Notes: generated by a model not told the origin, from the letters alone. 34,069 nt of DNA from Nemertoderma westbladi (GCA_032718475.1 JAUCBJ010004952.1:1-34069); one strand, 5' to 3'; shown: positions 4,490 through 33,601, counted from the first letter of the stretch. Made by a program: numbers and translations.

Positions 4490-5947
4490 CAACATGTTTC
4501 TGTTAATAATAATACTAAATAAACCATTCACTGAAAAAATATTACATGTTTCTGTTAATAATAATACTAAATAAACCATTCACTGAAAATTATTACATAT
4601 TTATGTTACTATGTTGCAAATTTCATCTACGCCGTTATTGAAAAATTCTACAAAAGTATCAAATTTACTTCCTATGTATTTGTTTCTTACATTGGCCATT
4701 CGAGGGCAATCTTGTAAAACGTGTAATTCGGTTTGCAAGTCGTTGCCGCATGAGCAAAGAAGCTGTTCGCGGGGGGTTCGCGACCAACGGCCCATCTCAA
4801 TGCGGAGACGATGTGAGCTCAATCTAAAACGAGACACATTTACTCGTTTATAATCGGGAATGTAACATGAGCTTTTACAGTAAATTGCATGCACAGTTAA
4901 CTGGGGATTTAACTCTGTGTATATTTTAAACTTACTTTTAATTGTGGCCATTTCTAGTATATTATTTTTAACCTTTACACGACTATTATTAACTATATCC
5001 CTATGATTATTCACAAGCCCATCTAAAAATCTATAATAGGGCGTGTTTTCGGTTCTACACATGTCATAAATACGCCTCAATGGATCTGAAGCGTCCCAAA
5101 TTGACATCTGTTTGAGAAACGACTTTCTAATAGCGTTATCGATTACCGCGTCAACATCAGCCAAACCCAACTCCACTAAACATAGTAAGTTTGGCGTTGT
5201 AATTTGTACATTTAATAAGATTTTGACCAAACGTATATACACATTACGTATTGGTTTCCTACCTACAGTGGAAAGCCACGTATCAGATGAATACAAAATG
5301 GAAGCCAGTATTGCACAATTAAACACTTTCAGTTTTAACTGAAATGGCATGTTACCGTCAACGGCACAGAAAATTGAGAATTTTCGTACATGTTTCTCGC
5401 ATTCTTTTGCATGGTATTGCAAACATGGTGACAATTTACCATCCTGCGTAAATATAGCCCCGAGATACACATAAGTATCTGTATTTTTTATCACATTGCC
5501 TTCAGCACATAAAGGTTCTCTGTCTGCGTGGCTACCGTTTATCACCATAAACTTTCTTTTATCTACATTAATAATCATATTATGCGCTTTACAGAAATCG
5601 TGCAAAATTTGTAGCTTTTGCAAACAACGTTGACGGGTAGAGGCAAAAATAGCGGTGTCATCCATAAAAAGTAAGGCATGGATAGTAGATAAATAATCGT
5701 TACTACTACACAAGTTATTAAACAATATAATTAATGCATCTATATATAATGTAAACAGGAATAAACTGGATGGATATCCCTGGCGGACGGACGCCTGTGC
5801 TTACATTTATATCGGTGTGATTTAGCTGTAGGTATGTATGCCTATATACCGCGCGAATTGCGTTTATCATATTTAACCCGCATCCGAGTGATATAAGTTT
5901 ACTTATAAGGATTACTCTTGATACCCTGTCGTATGCTTTGGATTCGT
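4490..5947 (-). mobile_element. 5'-truncated non-LTR retrotransposon (LINE, probably CR1/L2-group); C-terminal half of the RT ORF
   Basis: ORF 4601-5725 has the catalytic LLFMDD, YVYLGAIF, ILYSSDTW and the C-terminal RFRLSSHRLRIEMGRW..CSC..ELHVLQDC. The frameshifted upstream part (5726-5947) reads SKAYDRVSR...TGVR/QGYPSS...LFTLYID. The 3' boundary is approximate. Confidence 0.88.
4492..4599. repeat. 52-bp tandem duplication at the 3' end of the LINE
   Basis: acatgtttctgttaataataatactaaataaaccattcactgaaaa starts at 4492 and at 4544, just past the LINE ORF stop. Confidence 0.9.
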
Positions 5948-6136
5948 CTACCCGTCGTATTCTATCTCCTCACATTCTCTAAAGTTCCTTGCGACCCTCT
6001 CAGCCCTCTCTTTATTCTCTCTCGCCAGTTCTCTCTCTCTTTCCAACAACGCAGTTCCCTCTTCCAACTGCCTCTCCAACTCCTTTTGGTCTAGCGCCAC
6101 CATATCCAACTGGCACGCCAGATCTATTTCTAACAC
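5948..6136 (-). pseudogene. Short coiled-coil-like ORF fragment, probably a frameshifted continuation of the host ORF ending at 6142
   Basis: E/R/L-rich heptad-like sequence (QKELERQLEEGTALLERERELARENKERAER) that ends at the LINE 5' junction. Confidence 0.35.
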
Positions 6137-6141
6137 CCTTC

Positions 6142-9100
6142 TTACTTTTGCGGAGGATGTAGCGGACTTGTCGGTCGCCTCTCCGTCCTACTAACTTTCC
6201 CCCGCTTTCTGGGGTTCTCGCTAACCGACGAGACCGAATCCTCGGGGTTAATCTCGGATTCGCCCTCGTGCGGGTCTGCCCAACCCACTAACTTAATTCC
6301 CCTAGCATCCACTAAATACGGCCCTATGTATACAACTTGGGGCTCCATAATCCCGGATCGCCACAGTTCAAATAGTTCGGTGGCGACCCCCCTCGCTCTC
6401 TCACTGGCTAGTTCTCCCTGCCCAAAGCGAACTAGGTATTTAAAGTGTTTGTTCGACTCTACTACTACTAGGATCGGCATGCTGCATTGCAGCTGCATTT
6501 TTAAGAATGCTGTGCCGGCTTGTCAACAAAATTGCACCGCCACAACTCCCTATCACCCATGACATTTGCTAGATCATCCGCATCTTTAAGGCCAGTGTCC
6601 TTTAAGATGCGTCTCAAGAAAGTCATGGGCTGTCCACCATGCTTATTCACTCCATGAGGCTGCCAAAGTACAAGATTATGCACTGGCTTGTCCTCACGGC
6701 GAAAGCAATGTCCTGCAAAGCGGAGGCGATTTTGTTCTAGTGTCAAGCTTGGGGGAACCAATGAGACACCTCCAATGTGATATAGTGTCTGGTTGGAGAT
6801 GTGTGCATTGTACTTGACACAATGAACCCGGCGCAGCATTCTTGTGAAAGTGCCATCCAGAGATTTGGTGTCCTCAGCAGTTAGAGCCCAGCATGGACTC
6901 CCATAGAGGAGTACTGGAACTACTGCTGCTCTAAATAATCGGACCTTAAGTTTCCGATTAATTCTCGGTGACTTCCAAATCCTGGAAAGCCTATTCAAGG
7001 CTGCCCATGCCTTTCCCGTACGTATTCGAAGGTCCTCACCTGACTTCCGGATCCATGATCCCAGGTAACAGAAGTCGTCCACATGCTCAAGCATACCATC
7101 CTTTGAGCTTATGCTCATCCGATCAGAGACTTGCTGAGGACTTTCAAAGTTAACTGTCAGAAGTTTGGTCTTTCTGGAGTTAATAAAAAGACCAACACTA
7201 GAAGCAGCATGTTCTAATGAGCTGAGGAGCCGTTGAGCTCCCTCTAATGATTCTGAGAGTACTCCTAAGTCATCAGCAAAGTCTAGATCAGTTAGGTACT
7301 TGGCAGGATTTCCTCGACTTCTGGAGCCAGTAGGTGGAGTTATCATCACCCCATCATCATTATAATGATCTAAGGACATGCGTAGAACATAGTCAACCAC
7401 AATAATGAACAAGAATGGTGCAAGTGTGTCTCCTTGGAGGACGCCCCATAACACTTCAAATGGTTCTGTGTCACCGTCAACAGTAGAAACAAATGTTGTC
7501 GAACCATCATATACTGATCTGATTCCTGCAATAATCCATCAATAAATCAATAATTCATCAGGAATCCCATATAATGAAAGTATGATGAACATACGTGAGC
7601 GAGAGACTGAATCAAAGGCCTTGAAGAAGTCAACAAAGATAACAGCCTGTCTTTCTTTTTTGATAATTCTTCAATTATCCTTCTAAGTGCCAAAATGGGT
7701 TCCATGGTCCCACGACCTGTACGGAACCCATTCTGATTTCCACGGAGCAGTCTCTCAATGGGATCCCTGATGCGATTTAATAGAATCCTATTGTATAGCT
7801 TTGCAGCAATCGAGATCAATGAGATTCCCCGAAAAGAACCATAGAGTGTTAGGTTGCCCTTCTTGGGAACTGGCACCAACTTATTCGTTTTCATTTCTTG
7901 TGGGACTCTTGTTGTTCGGTACATGTCTACTATGATGGGATAGATGAGCTTTAAACACTCAGGTATTTTAAAGACCTCAGGGGGAACACCATCTACTCCA
8001 CTGGCACGATTGGTCTTAATGCTCTTTGCAGCAGCCTTCACTTCTGCAAAGGAGATATCGCCAATGGGAATATCTGGGAGTACAGACTCAGACACTTTTA
8101 CTTCTATAAAGTTATCAGGCAATACCCTGTCATTATTGAGGAGCTTTTCAAAGTGGGCTTTCCAACCATTGAGGCGATCGGCTGGTGATTCAGCCTTAAC
8201 CTTGGTGGTTGGTTGGCTTTTCCGCCCAGTAAGCAGATTGATCGATTTCCATGCCTGGGATGATTGCCTGCTGTCGTCAGCATCATTGATGGCATCAACC
8301 TGTTGGTTTATTAGCTCCTGTAGATTAGCAGAGTACTGCCTGTTCAGGGACCTAGATGCAGCCTTAACTGCATTCTTGGCCGCTGTAGTCTGTTTGAGTC
8401 GGGACTCTTTCTGTGCCTTATGAAGGTCATTTCGGCACTTCTGAATTTTGTTGTCAGTCCAGGGGGCCCTTTTCCTGTTTCGAGGGTATACAGGAACTGT
8501 TTCTGCAGCTGCTAACTTAACTGCTTCTGTAAAGGCAGTATAGCCCTCACAGTGATCTGCCGCCTCAGAGGCAAGAGCCTCATACCTGTTGCTCAGCTGT
8601 AGTGTGAAGCTGGATCTCACACTTGGCTTTTGCAACAGAGAGGACCAGTCATGCCGCGGCAAGGCAGATTTCGTTGTTCTGCTAGCACGCAGACTAAGTC
8701 TTACCTTGGCCACAATATGTTCGACATCGCTTGGGATGCAGCTTGTTCGACTCACCTAGTTGCTGGTTTAACTTCCCTGGATCTATCTTTACACCCTCTC
8801 TCTCTAGCCTCCTTGAGTTGTTTCTTGGTTGCGTTGTAGGCTCGTCGGAGCCAGTCGCTGGTTCCGACGTCCTCATCCCGATCTCTCCTCCTCCCCTCCT
8901 GGTTCGGCGTCGTACCGGCGGCCCCACCGTTGCGGTTCCGGTGGGCCGTACGTCGCCCTCGGCCTGTGGCTGGCCGGCGACATTGGTACGTCGTGCGCCG
9001 TCGTGTGTCGACTCTTCCTCTTGCCCTGGTAGACGGCCGCCCTCCGCCTGGGCTACCAGATCGTTCCTCTCCGGCGAGTCCGGCGTTGCGGGTCGATACC

Positions 9101-13232: not shown

Positions 13233-15313
13233 GTCCAGTAGTATACCACTTACCAGATCCTAGTAACAATGTATCTTACAGTAAGATCCAGTAATGTATA
13301 CGGGCTCGTACAGTATCTGACAACAAATCCCAGTCCAGGGTATCTAATCAAACAGATACAATACACAAACGACTACTGGCGAGGAGCAGAGCCTAGTGTC
13401 TATTCTATGTACGTGAGCGGGTCTAATGCCTACGGACTAGACAAAAGGAAACCTGTCCTCTAACCGGTGAGGCAGATGTACAGTTACATTAACATACCAA
13501 ACTCACGGGAAAACAATCCCCGCGCAGCGAATCCTAACTATCGCTGACAGTCCTAAATACCGTAACTTGCCGCGGTGTGATTTATATGGTTTATATACGA
13601 GCTAGGGGGTTAACAGACCTAGCGTAACAATACTGATCCCGTATTAAATCAGTCTAAAGGGGGTCGTGCCTAATGTAACAATACCGCTGCTCAGACAAAC
13701 AACAGTTTAATAACGAAATGAATACTCCCTTTTTGCCGTAACTAAATATCATATCCTAAATTTACAAACTACGAATAGTAAATTACAGATAAATTCTGCC
13801 TAAAAGTAATCTAAAGTGCGCTATAACTAGTAGAACTCTAAGGGTAAATATGTTTTAGGGCGTGTGTGTGTGGGTGTGTTGCAATAAAACAATTTTGGTG
13901 TATCTCATTTTACTAGGTTTCAGTGATTTTCTGACCAAAACAATACCGTGCGCTAGCTACGAAAATAAGCTAGTCGCGCTCTGTAGAACTTTATACTTAC
14001 AAATGACGTCAAAGCTCTCTCCTTCCTATCCACAACTCAACCGGGCAATTACGGTGTTAGTAACTACACCCGTGATCGGCACAAATACCAGATTCTGGTT
14101 GTAAGATAAGAAATAGGGGTTAATTGCTACCGTACGTTAGCTGATCTGGTATACAAATTTGATTCTAGAATTTTGTTGCCACGGTGGCTAGCAGCAATAC
14201 CTATCAGTACGTGGCAAGGCGCGGTAGGATATTAATAAACCTCCCTAGGCCAAGCGAAGTGCCGATAGCAGAAATACTCCTTGCCTGATCAAATAACTAA
14301 GGTTCAGACAGGGGGGGGGGGGTACTAATGTATATTCTACAAAGCAAACCGGTACCGAACTGTCAGTATTGCGAATCACTAAATTATGGAACATATGCTG
14401 TCTGTACCTAATATGTACTCGCGTACTGACGAACGGCAATAGTTCACACCTGTAAGAGATACAGGTTAACCCAGGGATTTGCAGTACAGGGTCCTGACTG
14501 AATCTAGCTATCTGATCCTAAATTTTGCGGCGTCTCAGGACGGCGTCACGCTTACCCTGATCTATAGGTCTTACGTCGGGCAAGGGCGTCAAACAAAGTC
14601 TTACCTTCCTCGGAAATCGGGCGCTGCATGGCAAGTGGAGTATTTCGAAGGGGCGAAGGGGGTGCGCGGTCTAATCTAATGTGGGCGCTAGCGTGTTGTG
14701 GACATCTTCCCTGCGTTGCTGACGGTCTAACGGTCTAGGCGGCCATCCTCCCAATGCTTGGCTGTCCCAATGGTGGACAATTAGAAATATACATGTTCAA
14801 AAGTTTACAGTATATTTACGTAATTTACAAAGATTTATCAACCTGAATAAAGAGTGATAGTGAGAGATAAGTTAACAAGAGTGATAGTGAGAGATAAGTT
14901 AACAAGAGTGATAACCGAAGGCAAACCAGCCTATCTGGGACATGAATCCGCTAGAACCTTCCAGAGCATTCCATGGCCTTACATTGGAGCAATAAGATGT
15001 TCCATGCCCTATGATTGGCCCAACTCATCGTTCCATACGTTGTACGCACCTCATTGGTTTATCAAATTAGATCAAATGAAAATAAATTGCCCAAAAATGC
15101 AAATTTCCCGACTGGGATTCGAACTCGTAACCTATCTGTAATGTAACCAACGCCTTAACCATCTGACCACTGCGCCATTAGAGTTACCTACGGGTTTATG
15201 TGTACCAATATGAATAGGCATATTACATTACTGTAATTTAATCAAAATGCGTCGGATTTTAGAAAGTTTTTACGTTAAACTACAAATGCTACTTTATAGT
15301 GAAATAATCCATC
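13233..15313. repeat. ~2.1-kb non-coding interspersed repeat, copy 1 (LTR-like or 5' leader of the unclassified element)
   Basis: Colinear, same-orientation match to 30855-33120 from gtccagtagtatacc to tagtgaaataat, with many substitutions and indels. Confidence 0.9.
15104..15176 (-). other. tRNA-derived Pol III head (SINE-like or pseudo-tRNA) inside the long repeat
   Basis: Minus strand reads ggcgcagtggtcagatggttaaggcg...gagttcgaatcccagtcggga: A box TGGTCAGATGG and B box GAGTTCGAATC. The acceptor stem does not pair well. Confidence 0.65.
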
Positions 15314-15399
15314 AAAAATAATAATCTATAATGAATTTAATAAATAGGAATTTGAATTGAATTGGCATTACTAACATAAACAATAACATTATAAATTAA

Positions 15400-16017: not shown

Positions 16018-16125
16018 TTCCACCTTGGCGTACTGTAGTTGGTTAAATCGGTGGCATTGAATTCACATCTCTCCTTGAGTCGTGGGTTCGATCCCAACAT
16101 GGGGGTAGGGTAGTTTTCGTTTCGG
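16018..16125 (+). mobile_element. tRNA-derived SINE head
   Basis: ttccaccttggcgta..gttggtt..tgaattcacatctc..gggttcgatccc..agttttcgttt; a related copy lies at 17691-17780 on the minus strand. Confidence 0.65.
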
Positions 16126-16700
16126 CACGAATACTTTAAAGACAATAAAGATATTTATTAGCCAGGGCGCATCTCTTCCTTCCGTAAATAGTAGCTAAAT
16201 GAGTACTGGAGTTTCCTCTGGGTAATAAACACTGGGGGACCGCACTGGAAACAATTATTGAAACTTTGTGCGTAATCACTGGTCTAACGGACGATTTTTT
16301 AGTATAACAATCCATCATTAGGACACTCGTTTCAAGAAATCTTGGAGAACTATACCATCTTGGTCAGTAATTTCTGTCATCTGTGATATATTCCGTTTGG
16401 CCCTTTCGGCACCAGAAATGTGAGTATTACTGTAGACGTAAGAGACAGGACTAAACGGACGCAATGAAGAATGTCGTACATTACGATGATGTAAGTGAAT
16501 ACGTTCGAATGTACTGTCAATGGACACTTGTCAAACTAAAAGGAGCTGAATACTTCCAGTTTACATAGTGATGAATAATGTATACAAAGCAGAATGATTC
16601 TTACCTAACCTACCGCATCATAGTGAGTCCGTAACGAAGAATGTGTGAGTCCGTAACGCTGTTCTTAAACGTTTCAGCTGCAATACAGAACATAGAGACC

Positions 16701-17143
16701 AGTAGTAGGGTCTTGGTCCTCTCGGCGACAGTTAGACCTAACTGACACCCATTGGGTGTCATATGACACCCAATTATCACCCTATGGGTGTCATTGGGTG
16801 TCATTGGCGCCAGACTGTCTGGGTGACACCTCCCAATTAGGCTAATTAGACCCTAATTGACAGGTGTCATCAATTAATTAGTACAATTAAACCCTAACAG
16901 GTGTCATATGACTCCTAATTAGGGTTTAATTGATTATCCTAATTAATCAGACTGATTAGTGCCCTGACACACAATGGGTCATCAGTGATGTCTAACTGTC
17001 GCCGAGAGGAGCAAGAGGGTGTCATAAGTGACACCGCAGCTCTTTTATTCATTAATACTTATTTATTTATATTTAATTTTAATTAATTATTTGCATTTTA
17101 TTTTATTCGTATTTATTCATTTGTACTTTATACATTGATTTCT
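16701..17143 (+). repeat. Left TIR of the mini-Polinton
   Basis: Near-perfect reverse complement of the right end over ~390 bp, degenerating in the AT-rich inner part. Rich in TGACAC/GTGTCA and TAATTA motifs. Confidence 0.95.
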
Positions 17144-17337
17144 TAGCCATACTTAGACATAGGGTATACAGCTCCCTTACTGGTAACTAATTACTCCAGA
17201 CAGCTTTATCGTTGACCTTTGACCCCCAATTAGCTTTAACCAAGCAACAGCATATTAATGATAGTTGTATCCAAGCGCCCCCGCCCCCACCCCGTGACCG
17301 CTCTGATTACTAATTACTGTTACCTATATCCAACCGC

Positions 17338-17601
17338 CTGCAGTTCCATAGTCTGCCGCTAGAGGGCGTATTGTTTAAAAATTAACATCTTCTCTAGCTT
17401 TGTTATTTACAATCCGCAAAACCATGAAGTTATATTGCTTAAGAGTTCTAAGGGGCGAGCCATGAGGCAAGATGTTTGAGGCTTATTTAGATATATTATT
17501 ACTTAATTTGACCCCCCAATCGGCATCTATTACGGCATAGGCTATATCTTTTGCAGGGTCACAGAGTAGTCTGAAGTTCCCCAGTCTGCCGCTAGAGGGC
17601 G
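17338..17601 (+). promoter_or_regulatory. Two extended CTCF-like motifs (17338-17368 and 17571-17601)
   Basis: ctgcagttcc-atagtc-tgccgctagagggcg and ctgaagttcc-ccagtc-tgccgctagagggcg: a core resembling CCASYAGRKGGC plus the upstream TGCAGTnCC module at the usual spacing. Confidence 0.55.
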
Positions 17602-17690
17602 AAATGTCTTAAAGTGAAAACCATACGGTAGCCATGAATTGGTTACTAGGCAATAATACTGCATTTTGCAACGTTAGGCCTATTGCTAAC

Positions 17691-17780
17691 CAAACGAAAA
17701 CTGCCCTGGTTCATGCGGGGATCGAACCCATGACATACGGGAGATGTGAATTCAACGCAACCACTACACCAAGGTGGAAC
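17691..17780 (-). mobile_element. tRNA-derived SINE head inside the mini-Polinton
   Basis: Minus strand reads gttccaccttggtgtagtggttgcgttgaattcacatctcccgtatgtcatgggttcgatccccgc..agttttcgttt; same family as 16018-16125. Confidence 0.65.
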
Positions 17781-17859
17781 AGTAACCTTCGAATTTGTTC
17801 GTTGACGTTCGAATTTGTAAGACTCACATTTAAGACCTGACACAGACTATGCCTCACTG

Positions 17860-17936
17860 AGGCACTGAGGCATAGACTATGACTCACTGAGGCATAGTCT
17901 ATGCCTCAGTGAGTCATAGTCTATGCCTCAGTGCCT
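17860..17936. repeat. Perfect 77-bp palindrome (38-bp arms, 1-nt centre)
   Basis: aggcactgaggcatagactatgactcactgaggcatag-t-ctatgcctcagtgagtcatagtctatgcctcagtgcct. Confidence 0.95.
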
Positions 17937-18294
17937 AACGCCCTGATTTACAACAAACTGAAGCCTCTAGAACAAAAACTGGGTTGCCAGATTCGCTGTC
18001 TAGTCGGTGATACGGACGGATTCTCTAATGCTAAGCGTAACTAATACACCACAGCTAACCTTTCAGATGCGAGTACAGTGGTAAAGCCCATCCATAGTGA
18101 GATAACGTTGCACTAGCTCTCAAGGATAGTTATACTCACCATTCAAATATCCCTCGCAAACAACATCTAAAGTATTCCACTTCAATGAAAAATATATAAT
18201 GCAATATAACTCGAATATTTCTGTTTTTATAATATAAATAATAATTGTAGCATAAATTTATCATTTAACATAAATATAATGTGAAAATTCACTT

Positions 18295-18825
18295 TAACAT
18301 AGAGTAACTAAACTAAACACAAAATAGGATAAACAGATGGTCACGGGTTCAATCCCTACTCCGCGACCAATATAAAACCAACACAAAATAAGTTAAACAT
18401 AGAATAACTAGAGTACCTAAACTAAACATAAAATAGGATAAACAGGTGGTCACATGTTCGATCCCTAGTCATATCCCGTTTTATGGAAAATAAACAGGAG
18501 GTCATAGGTTCAATCCCTACTCGCGACCAATATACAACCAACACAAAATAAGTTAAACATAAAATAACTAGAGTACCTAAACTAAACATAAATTAGGAAA
18601 AACATATGCTCACAGGTTCGATCCCTATTCATATCCCGTTTTATGGAAAATAAACAGAAGGTCATGGGTTCAATCCCTACTCGCGACCATTATAAAACCA
18701 ACACAAAATAAGTTAAACCAGGGTTCGAGTCCTACTAATGCAATTATAAAAAGTAGGTAACACGGATGGTCATGGATTCAAACCCTACTCACGGAAAAAT
18801 AAAAACCAACACAAAATAAATAATA
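18295..18825 (+). repeat. Tandem array (~160-bp higher-order unit) containing seven Pol III B-box/tRNA T-arm-like motifs
   Basis: (G/T)GTTCRATCCC at 18346, 18455, 18507, 18615 and 18667, GGTTCGAGTCC at 18722 and a degenerate copy at ~18774. Several are followed by tactc(c)gcgacca, resembling a tRNA 3' half. Confidence 0.8.
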
Positions 18826-18858
18826 TAGTAAACTTTCATGTATACCATAGTAAATAAA

Positions 18859-19374
18859 CTAATTTAATAATAAAGTTTGTAAAATAGATAATGAAACGGG
18901 GAATTCACCGGCAGGACACATGGAAACAATTTTATTACTATGAAATACACTGAAATATGCACGTCCTATATATATTCTAATCGCGCAAAATAATTCAGGG
19001 GTATAGCTAATAAATATTGCTTTATTATTAATTGTATGATGTCCACATTTTTTCATTAATAATTTAAAATTAACACTTGGAAAAATAATAGTTCGTGTTT
19101 CGGTATTAAGTTTCAAATTTTGTAATTGCATACCGATAGTTTGTTTTAAATAAAGCAATTCACTAGCTAAATTATTGCACAGGCCTACAATTGTTACTGC
19201 GCCGCTGGGAAATAGCATTATAGTTGAATCGTCACCTTTGTAGATAAACATGTTTGGTTTTAAGCATCTTTGACCTGTAATTTGCTGTGAAATTTTCTCT
19301 AGTTCAAATTTGGCAATGTTTTTTCCGGTAAACTGTTTATTGGTTAATTCTATTTTGATGCTCAATTTCTTATT
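18859..19374 (-). CDS. Divergent TATA-box-binding-protein-like protein (both TBP repeats), probably a spliced 3' exon
   Basis: [21 protein letters not shown] resembles [35 protein letters not shown] resembles [39 protein letters not shown] resembles SYEPELFPGLIYR..VLLIFVSGKVV. The ~170-aa length equals a TBP core. There is no ATG at the start, and the frame opens right after TTTCTAG at 19375. Confidence 0.78.
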   Translation of the reverse strand, partial: [171 protein letters not shown]

Positions 19375-19394
19375 CTAGAAATTAAAATTAAATC

Positions 19395-20231
19395 CTATTG
19401 ACCCGTTAAATAGGGGTTGCGTTGGGAACATGCAATCTCAATAGTTATTCGCTCGATGGCTATTATGCGCCAACCCGAGCCGAGGCAGAGAAACACGCTT
19501 AACAGTTGATCGATGCGATTGACGGCGCTAGAAAACCAGTTATTAAAGTCGCTATTATTTAGAATTTGATTATTGTTACCGCTAGATTTAAAACAGAATG
19601 ATTCAATTTGAAAACCCTCGCTGGTTTCACGCTCCATTACGATATTGATTGTAAGCCAGACTCTTAAAAAAGTTCCCATGGCACTACGTAAATGGCTACT
19701 AACGTGTTCTTGAATGTGTGGAAAATTTTCGTTTAATGTTAATTCTGCGTCGAGTCTTGTTTCTGCGAGGTCGTTGTTATAGCTAAACAGTCGTCCGTGT
19801 GCGCTTCCGTTGGAGGGGGGTTGAAATGGATTGTTTGGGGAAAAAGAATCTCGTGAAGTTGAAGGTTCATTATTGGAGCCGCCGCCGCCGACTTGTTCTG
19901 GAGTAGAGTTGATGGGGGATGAGTGGGAGGTAGTCGGAGTTTTGCGTTTCCGCAAAAAAAGTCGAGTGTAGCATTCATGCTCAGAAAAGGATGATAGGGT
20001 GAGCGAATCCCCGCAGCGGCAATCGGCTGGCTCGTTTACGTAACTAAATCCTGTTCCCCCCTGAGGACACGAAACAAGATGGCCAACCAGCGTCTTCTTT
20101 TCCAAGGACCAAGTCGGGCAACAGTCGCATCTATATTGCGCGAAATGAATTTTAATATGTGATTTTAGATTATCACTCCGCATCTATTTGTCGCAGATGG
20201 GGCAGCTAACTTTATTGGTAGACATAGGCAT
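19395..20231 (-). CDS. C2H2-type zinc-finger protein with a C-terminal GSGW domain resembling the N-terminal region of Polinton-type PolB; one in-frame TAG in the first finger
   Basis: Extending track ORF 19395-20183 upstream gives MPMSTNKVSCPICDK*MRSDNLKSHIKIH. Further Cys/His clusters follow (CDCC..HLVSC, CRCG..HEC), then a low-complexity linker, then FCFKS..AVNRIDQLLSVFLCLGSGWRIIAIERITIEI..NPYLTGQ*. Confidence 0.62.
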
Positions 20232-20757
20232 CTTGAATCTAGAAAAATACGTTGATTATTTATAAAAAGATAAAAAATACTGTATACTTGGTAAAAATAA
20301 AGTAAAACAGTAGGTATTAATCGGTTACTAGGCAACAATACTGTGTTTGTACAGTTAGGCCTATTGCTGTATTGTAACAATCAGTCGGTGAAACATAAAG
20401 CAGGCAGTCGGCAGTATCTAGTGCAGTAGTGTTAGTGAACCAGCGGTTAGATAGTGGCGATAACCAAGACACAAAAGCGATGCCAGTTATTATTCGTGGA
20501 AAGAGGGTCTATAAACAACAGTCATCAGTCAGTCAGTGCAGTAGTGCTAGTGATATAGTCTGCTATAAGTGATAAGTCAGATGTACCGGTAGCGTTAACC
20601 AATACAAATCAACGATAGGCCTAGCTAATCGCTGTATGAGAACTCAGTTAGTCAGTAGGATATATAGTGAAAACTGCAGTAATCATTGTTGTTCAGTAGG
20701 ATCTAGGCTAACTCGAATGATGCGGTACCGGTAGTCAGGTAGACAAGCAGATAGACA

Positions 20758-21535
20758 GATGTAGGCCTATTGATCGAATGCTTCGATCACGGTTTAGGCT
20801 ATCGGTATCACCGCAGTCTGACAGTAATTAATAATGAGCCTACTGCAATACTGTTGTACCGGTAGACATTAAAGGTAAATTGTTTGCTAGCGGCGTCGAT
20901 AGTACAGTCAGATGGTGGAAGGGAAGGCAGATTTTACTTACGGTGTTAGTAAATATTCACGGAAAGAAGAAGATTGTAAGTTCGTGAAGAAGTTGGTTGA
21001 CGTGGACGATGAGAGAATTTATTTACCGATAGAACGGAATGGTATCGGAAATTAGAAATAATGGAATATTACGCGGCGGATATGCGGAAAGTTTGTTGTC
21101 GACGATGAGCGATAGCGCGGCGAAATGATACTAGAAAAATAAGATGATTATTTGTAAAAAGAAAAAATATTGTAAGCAGATAGGCGGATGTAGGCCTATT
21201 GATCGAATGCTTCGATCACGGTTTAGGCTATCGGTACCACCGCAGTCTGACAGTAATTAATAATGAGCCTACTGCAATACTGTTGTATCGGTAGATAATA
21301 AATGTAAATTGTTTGCTAGCGGCGTCGATGGAGATGGTGGAAGGCAGATTTTACTTACGGTATTAGTAAATATTCACGGAAAGATGAAGTTCAGAAGTTC
21401 GTGAGGAAGTTGGTTGACGTGGACGACGAGAGAGTTTATCAACCGATAGAACGGAATGGTATCGGAAGAATATTACGCGGCGGATACGCGGAAAGTTTGT
21501 TGTCGACGATGAGCGATAACGCGGCGAAATGACAA
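20758..21535. repeat. Diverged ~430-bp tandem duplication inside the mini-Polinton
   Basis: gatgtaggcctattgatcgaatgcttcgatcacggtttaggctatcggta... starts at ~20758 and ~21187, and both copies run to gacgatgagcgata.cgcggcgaaatga. Confidence 0.92.
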
Positions 21536-21731
21536 TAATACAACTATACAACTGGATAGTTGACTGACGATAACAAATAAATATTCTTAAATAAATAATA
21601 TTAAATTCGAAAACAAAATAATGGTAAATGATGTTAATTGTAACTTGCAATTGAAATAATGACCTAATATATTGGTGGGGACGTATTAAATAGCAATTCG
21701 GTTAGTAAGGGAGGCCCTTGTCTCTTAAATG

Positions 21732-21776
21732 AGCCAATCAGAACGCAGCAGTAGAAATGAAGCCCGCTGATTGGCT
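21732..21776. promoter_or_regulatory. Inverted pair of CCAAT boxes; candidate promoter for the minus-strand transcript of the element
   Basis: agccaatcag (21732-21741) and ctgattggct (21767-21776) lie upstream of both minus-strand ORFs. Confidence 0.4.
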
Positions 21777-22330
21777 GTTCATGCATAAGCGGTTACCAGG
21801 GCAACTTCTCGTGTTGATGTATCTATTAGAAAACCCTGTAGGCATCTTGACTAATTATGTTGAGTTGGCTGTATAACAGAAGCAAGTCTGGTGCAAAGGA
21901 AAGGGATTAGTAGAGAGGAATGCGTGATTAGAGGCGCTTCATTGTTATGATACGGGCTGCCTGGATATAGGAAAGGGACAAAGCGACGCCGGCTATAGTG
22001 GGAACAATGGAGGGCCGCTGGAACATTAGCCTTGAGCGATATACGGATTTGCTGTAGTCAAAGCCGCATTGGGATTATTAGTGAGTCATCGAGGGGGCTG
22101 CTAACAGTCGGGACCGCTGATTTATATTTGCCTTGGGGGTATACGTATAGAAGATTCACTGCCTGTTGTATCTAGTTAATGAATAGCGACGGCGAGGAGG
22201 GGTCCCCGCCGATGAACGTAGTTGATAGTTGCCAGTAGGGAGCCGTATACCATAGCCATTATAAAGTTAATTATAGACATTATGTCATAGTGATCTCGTT
22301 GGTAATATAAAAACTAATTAATCTAAAAAT

Positions 22331-22801
22331 AGAAATCAATGTATAAAGTAAAAGTAATACAAATATTTAATTTAAAATAAAGTACAAATGAATAAATAAA
22401 GTAAAATAGAATACAATTAATTAAAATTAAATATAAATAAATAAGTATTAATGAATAAAAGAGCTGCGGTGTCACTTATGACACCCTCTTGCTCCTCTCT
22501 GCGACAGTTAGACATCACTGATGACCCATTGTGTGTCAGGGCGCTAATCAGTCTGATTAATTAGGATAATCAATTAAACCCTAATTAGGAGTCATATGAC
22601 ACCTGTTAGGGTTTAATTGTACTAATTAATTGATGACACCTGTCAATTAGGGTCTAATTAGCCTAATTGGGAGGTGTCATCCAGACAGTCTGGCGCCAAT
22701 GACACCCAATGACACCCATAGGGTGATAATTGGGTGTCATATGACACCAATGGGTGTCAGTTAGGTCTAACTGTCGCAGAGAGGACCAAGACCCTACTAC
22801 T
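22331..22801 (-). repeat. Right TIR of the mini-Polinton
   Basis: Reverse complement of 16701-17143 with few differences in the outer ~390 bp. Confidence 0.95.
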
Positions 22802-23399
22802 GAGACCTAATGGATGGTTTTGATTGGTTGTAATCCAAAGGAAAATGACGCAGTTTAATATACATGCGGGTTGTACTCCAAATTAAAACTTTAAGTAGTT
22901 TAGATTACGGACTCACATATTTATGTAGGTCAAATCTCAAATTTTTGAAACTTTGAATACACAATGCTACGCTGTCAATATTCAAATTTTTATCATCAAT
23001 AGCTTATATTAAATGTTGAATTTTTGGTTGGTGTAATTACAGTACCTGTCTTAATCAGACAATTTCAATAATGGTAGTAAGATTATGTCAAAAATGAGAT
23101 GGATTAATTTCAACAAATTTAAAATACGTAAAAAAATTCCTCATATTGAATAATGAAAAACCAGTTGTTACCCTCAAGAATATTAAAAATCTGTCACTTT
23201 TATTAAAAAAATTCTTTCTCGTCATTTTGATACCGCTGATTAGATGACTTTTATTTTCGAAATAGTGTTACATCAATGGTGGAATTGCCCATTCATTACC
23301 GGTATACCAGGTGTTCCATAATGATGCCCCCCCCCCACAGACACTTCCGATATTGGTGAACAGTCAAGTGCAAAAAGTTGGTGCAAGCACCAAAATTTC

Positions 23400-24310: not shown

Positions 24311-24955
24311 CAAGGCGTACTATATACAAGGCCATGCCATCGAGTTACCTGGGGGCGGTGACTGGGGGCAAGATGTTTTTTTACAACAATTGGATATTTT
24401 GATATGGGGAGAGTTCTATAAATTTTCATTTGCTGCAATTTGGTCAATGGACGTAATTGAGGCATCTTCGTTAAGTAAGATAAAAAATTTTATGGTAGCT
24501 AGTGTTTTAGATAGGTTTAGCTAGTAATTTCGACACTGGTTCCGACATCCTGCTTCCCTCTATAAATATTTTGTAGTAGCTAGTTCTTTTTACTATTTGT
24601 ATAGAAAATGTTCCAGAACATGTTAGCTATTCATTTTTTAAAAAAATTATGTTCTAGAACAAATATTTTTTGTTCTAGAGCATTTTTTAGAAAAAAATCT
24701 GGGTTCTATTTAAAACGCATGGAATCGTTCTAAAACGTGTTTAAAATCAATAAAAAAAATTTCACAATTTAAAAAAAAAAAATTTTTTCACAATATTTTT
24801 TTTCACAATTTTTTTATAGTCGCATATAGAAGGATGCTTCAATTACGTCATCGACCAATTTGCAGCAAATAAAAATTTATAGAACTATCCCCATATCAAA
24901 ATATCAAATTGTTGTCAAAAAATCTTTGGCATGGCCTTGTATATAGTACGCCTTG
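24311..24955. mobile_element. hAT-type MITE (645 bp) with an 8-bp TSD
   Basis: TIR caaggcgtactatatacaaggccatgcca / tggcatggccttgtatatagtacgccttg, plus ~95-bp subterminal inverted repeats. TSD TTGTAAAC at 24303-24310 and 24956-24963. Confidence 0.88.
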
Positions 24956-25089: not shown

Positions 25090-26457
25090 TTATGGATTGT
25101 AATAGTCATAGTCTGATGTAATAACAAAATCATCACCAGGATCAAATTCGCCGGCGAAATCCTCCAGTAGGGTGGTAGTGTTGGGTTGGTTATTAAACTT
25201 GCGGGTTACATCGAGATTCGTACACAAAACAAAGACAATAGTTAAAAAGAAAAGTGAAAAATCTATGTAATTTAAAATTTTGATCCACAATCGAATTTGC
25301 TTACGGGTTAGTCGGCATGAAAACACCAAGATGGTAACTTTAATACTTTCGGGTTTATTTTCTTTCTCGTTTACTTCTTTACTATCCAATGGTTCCAAAG
25401 CAATATCTTCTTCTTTAATATCCAGATCGCCACGAAGACTTTTACCATCACCCGTAGAACAACTATCTTGCATTTTGTCCAAAAGGTTGTACAACCTCTG
25501 TACAATAACGCACGCGATTACTGTAACTATAGTAACAATAACATTCAAGTAGTACATTTGACTAAGAAGAGCCTCAGGTTTCCCTGCTGGTGGAACAAAT
25601 TGTTGGACCATCACAAGATTAATGAGCTGAGCAAAAAATAAGGCAGATACGAGACCAATCCTGTCGCCCTCCTCGTGTGGAAGGAGAAAAACAAAAGGGA
25701 TGATTGCGCTGATAATGATAGATGGAAAAATTATTATCTTGTAGTAGAATTGCGGCGTTCTATGGATTGTAATGGCGTATATAAGGGTCGTGTATGGTGT
25801 AACGTTTTGGTCTTTTCGGATTTCACTCACCGAACTATTAGAGCGAGCTTCGCCTTTGTCCCAAATCCACTCGTTCGAAGAAAAGCGAACTTTACTCATA
25901 ATTTCTGACATATAGGTCGACCAGTGGAGGCGCACCTGTGATTCATCGTAAATCCATGAAGCGAAATTAAATTCGATAATTTGTCGGTCGTAGGGGAAGA
26001 AACGCGCGCTCAAATCTTGGGAAACTTTCATGTTTATCCGTTGGAGATGTTCGGCGTTTCCCGAAGATCGTAAAATCACGTAATCCACAGTGTCTCCCTC
26101 CCCTCGCTCTAACATATCCATAACTGTAACCTTTGGGTTCCATATCTGTGATGGAGATAACGACAGTTCTTTAATCCCATTGTAGTCTTTTGGATTCCAC
26201 TTTAGGTTTACATCCTCCCAGGACATTGCTGTCCAAGCAGAAAAGATGACACATGAATGAACTATGTCCACATCGGCAATACTTGTCAGTCTGAATGTCA
26301 CATTCACATCAATTACTGCAGAATCGTTTAAGGCAGGGCGATACTCCACCTTGTAATTACTTAAATCCAAAGCAGCAGTCAGTTTTTTCACATTGGCTTG
26401 ACTTTGGGCTTCAGTAAGTGCAGCTATAACGACCAATATAAATACTTTTATTAACAT
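25090..26457 (-). CDS. Pentameric ligand-gated ion channel subunit (nicotinic acetylcholine/5-HT3 receptor-like), intronless, Cys-less loop; 455 aa
   Basis: ATG at 26457 gives the signal peptide MLIKVFILVVIAALTEA. Motifs YRP, WEDVNLKWNPKDYNGI, IWNP, FFPYDRQ..FASWIYD, IHRTPQFY, then M1-M3, a cytoplasmic loop and M4 (IDFSLFFLTIVFVL). Confidence 0.93.
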   Translation of the reverse strand: MLIKVFILVVIAALTEAQSQANVKKLTAALDLSNYKVEYRPALNDSAVIDVNVTFRLTSIADVDIVHSCVIFSAWTAMSWEDVNLKWNPKDYNGIKELSLSPSQIWNPKVTVMDMLERGEGDTVDYVILRSSGNAEHLQRINMKVSQDLSARFFPYDRQIIEFNFASWIYDESQVRLHWSTYMSEIMSKVRFSSNEWIWDKGEARSNSSVSEIRKDQNVTPYTTLIYAITIHRTPQFYYKIIIFPSIIISAIIPFVFLLPHEEGDRIGLVSALFFAQLINLVMVQQFVPPAGKPEALLSQMYYLNVIVTIVTVIACVIVQRLYNLLDKMQDSCSTGDGKSLRGDLDIKEEDIALEPLDSKEVNEKENKPESIKVTILVFSCRLTRKQIRLWIKILNYIDFSLFFLTIVFVLCTNLDVTRKFNNQPNTTTLLEDFAGEFDPGDDFVITSDYDYYNP

Positions 26458-26736
26458 TTTCAGTAAATATATACCGGTACCGGTACACTTACAAATTGAA
26501 TCTGTTCTCAAGTGTTCAAATATACAATAATTAATAGTGAGAGATACAATGGGAAGCTAAAATCCCAGAGCAGTAAAGAATATGACTCACGATTTAATAT
26601 TTATTTCTCTCAATAATTTGTTGACATATTAATTGTATTTAATTTAATTTTAATAAATTATTGTAGGAAGATATATTACATTAATAGATAAGAAACCGCC
26701 GTGGGATAAGGGATCCGGTTTAGTGTATATATATTA

Positions 26737-27035
26737 GTAAGCATATAATAATAAATAAAATATTATTTTAAATGAACCTAGATCGACCTCAGAAAAAAAT
26801 TCATATATTACTTTATCACTAGCTTTCGATATAATTATGTATTTAATATGTAATACCGGTATATTTAATAATATGTTATTAATTTATTTAATTTATAAAT
26901 AGTTGGTTTTCAACACTTGAAAAAGATATACATATTATATCGAAAGATAGTGATAAAGTAATATATGAATTTTTTCTGAGGTCGATCTAGATTTATTTAA
27001 AATAAAATTTTATTTATTTATTATTTTATGCTTAC
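26737..27035. mobile_element. AT-rich foldback/MITE-like element with ~100-bp inverted arms
   Basis: gtaagcat..ctagatcgacctcagaaaaaaattcatatattactttatcactagctttcgatataat is mirrored by attatatcgaaagatagtgataaagtaatatatgaattttttctgaggtcgatctag..atgcttac. Confidence 0.75.
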
Positions 27036-27977
27036 AAATATAATTTAATTTTAATATATATTTAAATATATTACATATTGATGAAGCAACAACTCCAAAA
27101 GGAGATAATTATATGATAACAGGCAGATCATTCTCATAAAATCACCCGTTATAAGAAGTTCAATATACATACAATGCATACAATACATACATACATACGC
27201 ACTGCCAATTGAGTTAACATTTTCAAATGAAATACAGTACAATAAAATCCAATCCTTCACTTCATGTTATAGCATGATGGGAACTCTGTTTCTACATTTA
27301 TCGCCCACCACACAGCCAATTATTCGGGGATTGGGCCTCCAAAACCATTATAATGCCCAACATCAGTAATGGAACCCCAATTTCAAAGCATTACTCCCCA
27401 TTTATATTAACTAGGAGCGTAAATACAGATGGATAGTGTTTGCTGGCGGCAGATGTAATTTATATCTACCAATGACAATAAGAGTTAATATCGTAAACTA
27501 CTGTATGGTACCGGTACTAAAGTGCACTCACTAGTCACTACACATTATCAAATAATTCTTATCTCAAAGCACCACGAATTCACACAACATTGTTTAGTTT
27601 ATAAACCATTTACACGTTTGAGCCTTTGTGTCTTGTGTGTGTTCGAGACATGGGGGGAAACTGCAAACCCCATTAATATCCGAATTAATATCCCGCCTCA
27701 ATGTTAACTTTTCAATTTAGGGAAAGGAGCAGGTTACAGCGGTACGTTATTTTAACCAAAACAATAAACTAAACACAATAGGACAGGTTACAGTTTTATT
27801 TTTGAGACAGTGGAGAGGGTTTATTGCGTCCAGCCCCCCCCCCCCCCCCCCCCATGTTCATGATTCACTGGGATTGGCCAGAATTGTAATTCCATTTAGG
27901 CGATTAATGATTTATATTAGACATCAGATAGAGCAAAAATAATTGTCATTAATAATACTATAAGATAAAATATAATA

Positions 27978-30854: not shown

Positions 30855-33120
30855 GTCCAGTAGTATACCGCTTACCAGATCCTAGTAACGATGTATCTTA
30901 CTATGAGACTCTAGTAATGTATACGGGCTTGTACAGTATCTGACAACAAATCCCAGTCCAGGATATCTAAACAAACAGATATAGTACACAAACGACTACT
31001 GGCGAGGAACAGAGCCTTGTATCTATTCTATGTACGTGAGCGGGTCGAATGCCTACGTACTAGACAGAAGGATACCTGTCCTCTAACCGGTGAGGCAGAT
31101 GTACAGTTACAGTAACAGACCAAACTCACGGGAAAACAATCCCCGCGCAGCGAATCCTAACTATCACTGACAGTCCTAAATACAGTAACTTGCCGCGGTG
31201 TGATTTATATGGTTTATATACGAGCTAGTGGGTTAACAGACCTAGCGTAACAACACTGACAGTCCTAAATCAGTCGAAAAGGGGTCGTACCTAAATGTAA
31301 CGATAACTGATCCCCCTGTACGAAATCAGTCTAAAAGGTCAGGCCTAAATGTAACAATACCGTTGTCCAGACAAACAACAGTTTAATAACGAAAGTGAAA
31401 TACTCCTTATTGTGCCGCAACTAAATCAGATCCTAATTTTACAAATACAGATAATTTCCACCTAAAGTAATGTATAGTACGCTATAGCTAGTAGAACTTT
31501 AAGGGCGATATGTTTTAGGGCGTGTGTGTGTGGGTGTGTTACAAATAAAACAATTTCGTGTAATTCCTTTTACTAGGTTTTAGTGATTTTCTGACTAAAA
31601 TGATACCGTGCGCTAGCTACTAAAATAAACTAGTCGCGTTTGTAGAACTTTATACTCACGAATGACGTCAAAGCTCTCTCCTTCCTATCCACAACCCAAT
31701 GGGCAACCACAGTGTTAGTAACTACACCCGTGATCGGCACTAATACCAGATTCTGGTTGTAAGATAAGAATAGGGGTTAATCGCTACCGTACGTTAGCTG
31801 ATCTGGTATACTAATTTAATTCTAGAACTTTGTTGCTGCGGTAGTTAGCAGCAATACCTATCAGTACGTGGCAAGGCGCGGTAGGATATTAATAAACCTC
31901 CCTAGGCCAAGCAGTGTGCCGGTAGCAGAAATACTCCTTGCCTGATCAAATAGCTAACTCCAGACAGGGGGGGGGGGGGGGGGGGGGGTACTAATGTACG
32001 TTCTACAAAGCGAACCGGTACCAAACAGTCAGTGCTATGAATCACTAAATTATGGAACATATGCTGTCCGTACCTAATATGTACTCGCGTACTGACGAAT
32101 GGCAATAGTTCGCACCTGTAGGAAGTACAGGTTAACCCAGGGATTCGTAGGACATGACAAAGGGGGGGTGTCTGGATATAATTATTTGATCCTAAATTTG
32201 CGGCGTCCAGTACGGTGTCACGCTTACCCTGATCTATAGGTCTTACGGCGGGCAAGGGCGTCGAACAAAGTCTTACCTTTCTCACAAAGCGGGCGCTGCA
32301 TAGCAAGTTGAGCATTTCGAAGGGGCAAAGGGGGTGCGCGGTCAATCCAATGTGGGCGCTAGCGTGTTGTGGACATCCCTTCCCTGCGTTGCTTACGGCC
32401 TAACGGTCTAGGCTGCCATCTCCCTGATGTTCGGCTGTCCCGAAGTCGGACCAAAAGAAAACATGTCAGGAAATTGCAGTATATTTACAGTTTTACAAAG
32501 AATTATCAAACGAAGTTTCAACAAGAAACCGAATAAACTAATTTTACAATAATATAAAGGAAGTGAAGGTGTCATAAGTGTGTAATAACGTGATAACCGA
32601 AGGCAAACCGGCCTTTTTATACTAGAATATCGCACATGGAAACTAAACAGAATTTTCCACAGCTTCACCATTGAGCAATGAAGTGCTTCGTGCTCTATGA
32701 TTGGCCCAGCTCATCGTTCAACGCAGTCCGGCCCTTACACTAAATCTGGGACATGGAATCCTAACAGAATTTTCCACTGCCTCACATTTGAGCAATAAGA
32801 TAATTTATGCCCTATGATTGGCCTGGCTCATTATTCGCTACGCTGTACGCTTCTCATTGGCCTACCAATTAGCACCACACGAAAATAAATGGCCCCAAAA
32901 TACAAATTTCCCGACTGGGATTCGAACTCGTAACCTACGTAATGTAACCAACGCCTTAACCATCTGACCACTACGCCACGAGAGTACCTAAGGGTTTTAT
33001 GTGTACAAATATGAATAGGCATATTACATTACTGTAACTTAATCAAAATACGTCGGATTTTCAAAAGTTTTTACGTTAAAGTTAAACTACAAATGCTACC
33101 TTATAGTGAAATAATTCATC
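30855..33120. repeat. ~2.3-kb interspersed repeat, copy 2
   Basis: Direct-orientation match to 13233-15313, with extra internal duplications near 31250-31350 and 32620-32830. It includes the tRNA-like head at 32907-32977 on the minus strand. Confidence 0.9.
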
Positions 33121-33601
33121 ACCGCTCCATGAAAACAGTAAGTAAGACTGTTTTCACCAATCAAAATATAAAATATCTACAAACTATTTCTAAATTTACT
33201 GGTAGGGCCTAAAATATAAAATATAATCACTATCTAATCATTGCATACTTAATATTGCAGATACGGCGTAAATACAATCGATCGTACATACAAATACAAA
33301 TTTACGAATTAACTTTAGTGCCTAAAATACAAAAAAAAAGGCTTTCGGTTATCAAGATAAGCAAATTAAACAAATCAGAACAAATAAATCAAACAAATCA
33401 AACAAATAAATCAAACTCTTTCGATAAATCTTTATATATTGTAAATATACATAATAAACCTTTACCAAATTAAATCTGTCCAAATATAATATAAACATAA
33501 TGCGCTAATAACTTCCAAATGAGTCTCAAAGAGTCCTCCTGACAAGCTTAAAAGTTCGTCCTGCTGGTCTGGATATCTTCTCCTGAGCACTAATTGCTAA
33601 C

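Follow-up and report, generated by a model that had tools for sequence, protein, structure and literature searches.

We analysed a 34,069-nucleotide stretch of Nemertoderma westbladi DNA (GCA_032718475.1, JAUCBJ010004952.1:1-34069; hereafter the window), which contains a 6.1-kb mobile element at positions 16701-22801. We conclude that this element is best explained as a non-autonomous Polinton satellite that likely brings its own primer for the polymerase of a helper, a reading to which we assign a probability of about 0.6. The evidence comes from the ends of the element, the amplification of its family, and a zinc-finger gene that closes with a terminal-protein (TP) domain and is followed by a TBP-like gene. 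What doubt there is concerns whether the satellite makes active use of its TP.

Polinton-type ends and an empty target site

The element starts with AGTAGT (16701) and ends with ACTACT (22796-22801). Its terminal inverted repeats (TIRs) measure 431 nt on the left (16701-17131, plus strand) and 425 nt on the right (22377-22801, minus strand), and they are identical at 418 of 424 aligned bases. The hexamer GAGACC flanks the element on both sides (16695-16700 and 22802-22807). Mavericks are described, in the accessible part of one survey, as having the end motif (AGT)2//(ACT)2 or (AG)3//(CT)3, long TIRs and a 6-bp target-site duplication (TSD) (PMC8097293). The element has both a Polinton/Maverick end motif and a duplication of this length.

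We read the structure of the family from contigs of four public DNA runs (X1 to X4) of one organism, which belong to three studies; X1 and X2 derive from the same sample, and one of the four runs may be the source of the window. In three of the four (X1, X2 and X3, from two studies), contigs link 16694 directly to 22802, omitting 6107 bases and leaving six letters that are compatible with either side. Hence, the 6-bp repeat is a true target duplication. The first-pass annotation, made from the sequence alone, had described these ends, the long near-identical TIRs and the GAGACC duplication, had attributed the insertion to a Polinton-type integrase and had proposed a search for the empty site. 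The site was found, and both the Polinton-type ends and the clean 6-bp insertion are supported. The insertion target (16255-16700 and 22802-23274) is itself repetitive, its empty form standing at a depth of 286-586. The empty sites are therefore likely to be sister copies of the repeat rather than the other allele.

Each TIR also pairs with itself, in the left one positions 11-61 with 265-316 of the repeat. The resulting fold-back covers about 300 bases (16701-17030), leaves the first 10 bases unpaired and has a z value of -15.8, equalled by 0 of 100 shuffles. The same TIR holds 11 TGACAC/GTGTCA words, against 0.23 expected from the remainder of the window. Judged from sequence, the hairpin is a possible origin structure and the words are candidate binding sites for zinc fingers.

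The element belongs to an amplified, non-autonomous family

Summed contig depth, which is a rough guide and no copy number, reached 2034 in the element interior against 17-21 in nearby low-depth contigs in X3, 2035 against 28-32 in X1, and 8111 against 45-72 in X2. The ratio is roughly 60- to 180-fold, coverage is even, and the depth can be read, roughly, as a copy number between some tens and about a hundred. In three of three runs, each of the 30 bins across 18690-22830 was covered, long contigs were colinear, and the interior kept the same order across the three studies. Beyond 22801, X4 has a different flank. The deep, colinear interior, together with a flank repeat that is mostly empty, thus supports numerous similarly built copies at separate locations; their count is rough. 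Of the 305 loose ends in the interior contigs, none of the 18 listed suggests extra kilobases, and neither does any deep joint among the 15 listed of 18. Since every bin is covered, the pieces are colinear and neither the listed joints nor the listed loose ends call for more sequence, we conclude that the 6-kb form is the main form of the interior and moved as such.

The first pass had suggested, as one of two options, that the 6-kb unit was mobilised in trans, with a unique post-insertion deletion as the contrary case. The deep, even, colinear interior across three studies excludes such a deletion and supports mobilisation in trans.

Only two frames inside the element exceed 112 aa, both on the minus strand (19395-20183 and 18859-19374), in agreement with the two credible open reading frames (ORFs) counted earlier; both have the assignments given below. 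No frame is long enough for a polymerase core (vOTU, exonuclease, palm), and vOTU and exonuclease profiles had no match in the window. To look for remnants of integrase, packaging ATPase, protease and major or minor capsid proteins, we used tblastn with 604 frames from 95 distinct Polinton-like loci, which had been collected by gathering Polinton-type polymerases from viral and metagenome contigs. The frames matched the TP domain only, in four rows. From 19 motif-scan loci, two Polinton-type polymerases were kept in this collection and 17 were dropped as chance. Gathered polymerase loci gave endonuclease VII matches, one gave a DNA_pol_B_2 match, and at locus L005 the neighbouring genes resemble capsid, protease and ATPase genes by eye.

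The element therefore lacks what defines an autonomous Polinton or Maverick and behaves as a non-autonomous derivative. That it represents a non-autonomous Polinton family is, in our judgement, very likely. Because the ends are clean and the family was amplified without these genes, integrase and polymerase would have been supplied in trans by a helper.

Might the element instead be one segment of a multipartite Polinton-like virus, in which several TIR-sharing pieces (TP/TBP, polymerase, capsid) are inserted separately and need one another? TP and TBP-like functions could serve a polymerase or capsid segment in trans. The TIR depth in X4, 265 on one contig with two TIRs per element, compares with 72-118 for the interior and leaves room for other bearers of the TIR, yet it is also near the expectation for two TIRs per copy. 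One contig each in X2 and X3 departs from the TBP side of the element at 19397 and meets a Polinton-type terminal hexamer within 20 bases, possibly a TBP-only variant or else a chance match. TIR variants are visible in contigs, which do not reveal the interiors. No other segment was seen in the contigs of the runs. Moreover, the 95 loci yielded 50 TP hits, and every one is fused to a polymerase frame or is a broken piece of one; none is a clean separate gene. We consider a multipartite arrangement improbable.

A terminal-protein domain closes the zinc-finger gene

The larger gene of the element (19395-20231, minus strand) has 278 codons when read through an in-frame stop at 20184-20186 and encodes zinc fingers, a linker and a TP domain. 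The zinc-finger region (19941-20225, minus strand) comprises two C2H2-like units and a further Cys/His cluster, followed by a basic RKRK; its zf-C2H2 match (E 0.023) is below the cut-off. The N-terminal 97 aa, which span the stop, are 38% identical to the metagenomic protein P0002. This protein, a singleton on a 1003-base contig, was the sole relative returned by a 1.84-billion search, and it matches the zinc-finger part only. A TATA-like word lies at 20264, 33 bases upstream of the first ATG.

The accessible part of a 2024 preprint (10.1101/2024.03.18.585575) identifies the domain that precedes vOTU in Polinton polymerases as a terminal protein, places the priming Ser/Tyr in a loop between helix 2 and the last strand, and predicts from models a cleavage between TP and vOTU. 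It further links the TP fold with LF/PAD, a domain of Y-family polymerases, and reports a coral polinton, from Stylophora pistillata, that carries a separate TP gene.

The corresponding (D1) domain of the element occupies 19398-19763 (minus strand). It closes with a GSGW loop and a final strand, presumably features of Polinton polymerases, and this resemblance was then put to a profile test. The 50 TP hits came from a survey that excluded three duplicate loci, and 39 were long enough for a profile. With this profile, the TP frame scored 44.1 bits, at an E value of 6.6e-13 over the 581 frames of the window, while the next-best frame reached 5.3 bits and the best of 1000 shuffles 8.9. A second profile, built from six polymerases found through the exonuclease motif alone, gave 25.1 bits, with shuffles at 4.6 or below. 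Sequence homology to the pre-vOTU domain (D1 of pPolB) is thus present in the profile searches. The predicted priming serine, encoded at 19476-19478, occurs in 37 of the 39 polymerases as well as in the element, and it lies, as in a PRD1-like terminal protein, in a loop between helix 2 and the last strand with Gly/Pro near it. We are highly confident that the C-terminal domain is a terminal protein.

These data revise the first-pass annotation, which had read the cargo as a zinc-finger gene rather than a replication gene and the element as specialised for transcription control. The frame with the zinc fingers also carries a TP domain, on the evidence of profile, serine and model; hence, the cargo includes a replication gene. 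With a gene that ends in the primer of protein-primed replication, specialisation for transcription control is not supported, and the CTCF-like words and the B-box at 17719, which belong to host repeats (see below), lend it no support either.

Perhaps the TP domain is simply the 5' stump of a broken polymerase gene, its breakpoint having fallen at the TP/protease border by chance? TP domains are normally the N-terminal part of a polymerase, and among 35 fused polymerases one shows a C2H2-like pattern ahead of the TP. Where TP and polymerase are fused, the end of a YxPxxG word falls 22 residues past the serine, and the cysteine of the protease follows at about 48 residues from that serine. The element's frame stops 26 residues past the serine, at the TP/vOTU border and one residue after the border word. 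Profile searches detected no protease or exonuclease remnant of a polymerase anywhere in the window, and the next gene begins 20 bases on. All three observations run counter to a stump, and we regard this explanation as highly improbable.

Other searches added few relatives. Word-based protein searches returned none for either frame; viral contigs held no related locus of either, and phages, NCBIfam, PHROGs and, by sequence, PDB gave no match. An Atlas search with the TP part produced leads below 0.9 only. Among 5901 frames of the 95 Polinton-like loci, there was no zinc-finger or TBP-like homologue, a weak negative given how short many of these loci are.

We modelled the TP domain on a 40-row alignment (pLDDT, the local distance difference test as predicted, 86.6). 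The model runs helix-strand-strand-helix-loop-strand, with the serine in the loop, an order that the preprint also gives for TPs (10.1101/2024.03.18.585575); cut at residue 137, it has two helices and three of the four strands expected. A Foldseek search of BFVD gave a sole match at E<=0.001, the C2H2-type protein of Drosophila-associated adintovirus 2 (E 3.5e-4, TM 0.66), and the next rows were bidna-like and MELD polymerases. Foldseek against the PDB found no match at E<=0.001. Eight of the best nine PDB rows for the model were Y-family polymerases, matched in the LF/PAD region at Z 5.0-7.1. The predicted fold agrees with the profile, yet it is not independent proof, because its Z scores are of intermediate size and the modelling drew on the alignment of TPs.

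Is the TP gene kept for its function? The in-frame stop is private to this copy: the 17, 21 and 5 contigs listed at this position in three runs all differ from it. Given the early stop, this copy is likely a passenger of its own family. In relatives of 80-90% similarity, stretches of 190-390 bases across the TP region contain 0-1 gaps, while many indels mark the non-coding stretch 20240-22300. A nearly gapless TP region is what a gene under selection would be expected to show; the contigs may come from sister mini-elements or from full Polintons.

These observations bear on another explanation, in which the family arose passively by deletion: the core was lost from a Polinton whose TP gene already stood apart, the TIRs suffice for propagation, and the TP and TBP-like genes hitch-hike with no role for the mini-element. 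Separate TP genes do occur in full polintons, according to the accessible text of the preprint (10.1101/2024.03.18.585575), a protein with C2H2 and TP fold is present in a near-complete adintovirus, and this copy moved or persisted with a broken TP gene. However, the stop is not shared with the other copies, gaps are scarce in the TP region while indels abound in the non-coding one, and scraps of other Polinton proteins are absent (all four tblastn rows fall in the TP domain), which points to selective keeping over random loss. Passive descent seems to us rather unlikely, if the least so of the explanations set against the satellite.

The neighbouring gene is TBP-like

The second frame (18859-19374, minus strand) is 171 aa from stop to stop. 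Its match to Pfam TBP (PF00352; E 0.003, 17.8 bits, residues 16-65) is below the gathering score of 22.9. Atlas gave a TBP-like assignment at 0.95 with 206 of 256 features, and 29 of 30 hits fell in TBP clusters, several of them viral; the recognition value of 1826, against the tool's mark of 2300, makes this weak-to-moderate recognition. Both TBP repeats can be recognised by eye, on what we take to be the TBP motifs. As to the two-repeat saddle fold of TBP, a single-sequence model of the frame reached a pLDDT of 31, and the two halves are not alike by sequence. The gene had been called TBP-like at first pass, and the Pfam and Atlas matches bear this out.

The first ATG of the frame is residue 42, whereas the Pfam match begins at residue 16, and the frame opens right after an acceptor-like TTTCTAG (19375), 20 bases past the stop of the zinc-finger/TP gene. 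Because the match precedes the first ATG and the frame opens at an acceptor-like site, the gene is likely to have a spliced start. Splice-site scoring with a crude matrix found no clear donor for the first exon. The acceptor-like word (minus strand; 21131, 20240 and 19375) precedes both genes and an exon-like unit at 21130-20942.

TBP homologues are reported from MELD elements of non-animal datasets, in the accessible part of that study (PMC8502044). A coral polintovirus survey makes no mention of TBP.

How the satellite may be propagated

For a satellite of this kind, the integrase of the helper would excise and insert the element through its TIRs, and the helper polymerase would use the serine in the TP of the element as the attachment point for the first nucleotide. 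This TP would be made ready-cut, with no vOTU cleavage required. Because a Polinton polymerase normally comes with a single cis-fused TP, which is spent on a DNA end in each round, a free extra TP, perhaps guided to the TGACAC-rich ends by the zinc fingers, would favour copying of the satellite. The parent Polinton likely passed on the TBP-like protein, which, less firmly, might support transcription from promoters of the element or its helper. We also propose, tentatively and at less than even odds, that the satellite is a selected one, whose ready-cut, zinc-finger-guided TP out-primes the helper for its own polymerase while the TBP-like factor turns on helper or element promoters.

Several points weigh against a satellite that brings its own primer. 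The helper Polinton with matching TIRs is postulated, not an observed element. TPs and polymerases usually form cognate pairs. The TP may be the parent's own separate gene, retained by lying between the deletion breakpoints. With 11-25% identity to the 39 rows, the TP domain is only distantly matched, and without the serine loop and last strand the score drops to 13.4 bits with eight sequences and 9.0 with six, over shuffle maxima of 4.6 and 4.0. Since the model was built on a TP-domain alignment, its fold and the profile match do not count as independent; the model has three strands of four, and Z values below 8 are common. The TBP-like frame scores under the Pfam cut-off, has no ATG before residue 42 and has no convincing donor to supply one. 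Finally, the listed loose ends and joints are compatible with a minority of longer copies.

What would follow from these results? A natural TP-only gene that ends one residue past the border word supports the predicted TP/vOTU boundary from a different side, and a short protein with one named serine becomes a testable candidate for a Polinton primer. A multi-copy element that keeps a TP without polymerase, integrase or capsid genes implies that Polinton enzymes act in trans in this genome, and the same family implies that free linear copies are made; both are open points where animal virions are unseen. If the satellite is indeed a selected one, it would be the first animal satellite replicon that supplies a primer and so hijacks protein-primed replication, and it would offer a minimal system from nature for the predicted Polinton priming serine. 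If its genes are mere passengers, the family still stands as clean, abundant and non-autonomous, and published descriptions of such Polinton families are rare.

Non-coding interior and neighbouring features

The first-pass annotation had listed B-boxes and CTCF-like sites as control elements. The words themselves are present, seven B-box-like words at 18346-18785 and one at 17719, plus two CTCF-like words; the labels follow consensus motifs rather than database matches. The CTCF-like words (17356 and 17589, plus strand) lie in a 43-bp repeat at 17338-17613 that forms part of a dispersed host-genome repeat. Depth is far higher in this stretch, and its flanks number in the dozens and are unrelated; at the loose ends of 17562-17622, up to 44 contigs run into unlike flanks. 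The B-box at 17719 belongs to the tRNA-like head of a short interspersed element (SINE) with A- and B-box-like words (17690-17775, minus strand), a host repeat 79% like 16050-16122 outside the element. As element-specific control sites, the CTCF-like words and this B-box are therefore rejected on account of their unrelated flanks, higher depth and outside copy. No tRNA gene was called in the window, and an Rfam scan gave no gene at curated thresholds.

The other seven B-box-like words stand in a 160-bp tandem repeat that resembles the SINE head (18295-18820, plus strand). They form a tandem array within the family, with a putative role as insulator or Pol III template. A perfect hairpin of three 22-nt units lies at 17860-17936; as a microRNA it is rejected, its Rfam scores of 31-40 being far below gathering scores of 53-100. 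A non-coding unit of about 420 bp, exon-like on the minus strand, is tandemly duplicated at 20745-21532, with GTAAGT donors at 21358 and 20941. Its copy number varies (a joint leads from 21534 back to 20926, and depth is about five-fold in X4), and a subfamily lacks about 550 bases of this region.

Outside the element, an intronless ORF of 455 aa at 25090-26457 (minus strand) resembles a Cys-loop receptor (Pfam Neur_chan_LBD, E 2e-33) and is flanked by several inverted repeats, including 24311-24955 and 26730-27042. Direct copies, 82-86% alike, of a high-depth repeat of 1.8-2.2 kb occupy 13233-15320 and 30855-33121, and both carry AGTAGT four bases from the start. Three reverse-transcriptase fragments lie at 4601-7924 (minus strand; Pfam RVT_1, E 5e-8 to 3e-5). 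Together with the receptor-like ORF, they make an animal host likely.

Comparison with known systems

The comparisons that follow draw on the accessible parts of the papers cited. Like autonomous Polintons/Mavericks (polintoviruses, adintoviruses; PMC8097293, PMC8502044), the element is bounded by (AGT)2//(ACT)2, has TIRs that run to hundreds of bases and a TSD of 6 bp, and encodes a domain homologous to the TP domain of the polymerase. Unlike them, it is 6.1 kb long and has no detected polymerase core, vOTU, integrase, ATPase, protease or capsid gene. Intact vertebrate Mavericks have seven to eight conserved intronless ORFs, whereas the element has two, one of them likely spliced.

A TP that stands apart from the polymerase and is cut at the TP/vOTU border is shared with the Stylophora pistillata polinton and with adenovirus pTP, as is a serine, next to a Gly, in the loop that leads into the last strand (10.1101/2024.03.18.585575). 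Those systems differ in that their polymerase is on the same genome, while the element has none and its TP is preceded by zinc fingers. The best structural match (109 columns, root-mean-square deviation 2.5) is the C2H2-type protein A0A7D4VFN9 of Drosophila-associated adintovirus 2 (PMC8363768), which raises the possibility, on modelled structure, that zinc finger and TP fold may recur together in full adintoviruses. In contrast to the element's gene, A0A7D4VFN9 is 560 aa long and sits in a 13.3-kb near-complete virus (PMC8363768); the comparison is by name and structure match only.

The TBP-like protein is small, at about 170-180 aa, and is carried by a Polinton-related replicon, as are the viral TBP homologues of MELD viruses (PMC8502044) and of the clusters of nucleocytoplasmic large DNA viruses (NCLDV) in Atlas. 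The MELD TBPs come from non-animal datasets, whereas ours is on a non-autonomous animal element, for which literature searches returned no such case. Our search by title and abstract, with most subscription papers and Repbase outside its range, found no non-autonomous Polinton that keeps a TP or bears a TBP; TBP genes or separate TP genes of animal elements may be mapped in the supplements to the 2024 preprint and to two papers on adintoviruses. An anole survey describes, in the part accessible, an apparent absence of non-autonomous Polintons there, and partial Polinton elements are described in C. elegans.

A parallel in way of life is offered by the non-autonomous linear plasmids of yeast (killer and cryptic; PMC13348850), which are protein-primed, have TIRs, depend on a helper and carry their own TP; for the element, protein priming and a helper would complete the likeness. 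Those plasmids keep a TP-polymerase fusion, are cytosolic and do not integrate (PMC13348850). The element, unlike them, keeps the TP only and inserts with a 6-bp TSD.

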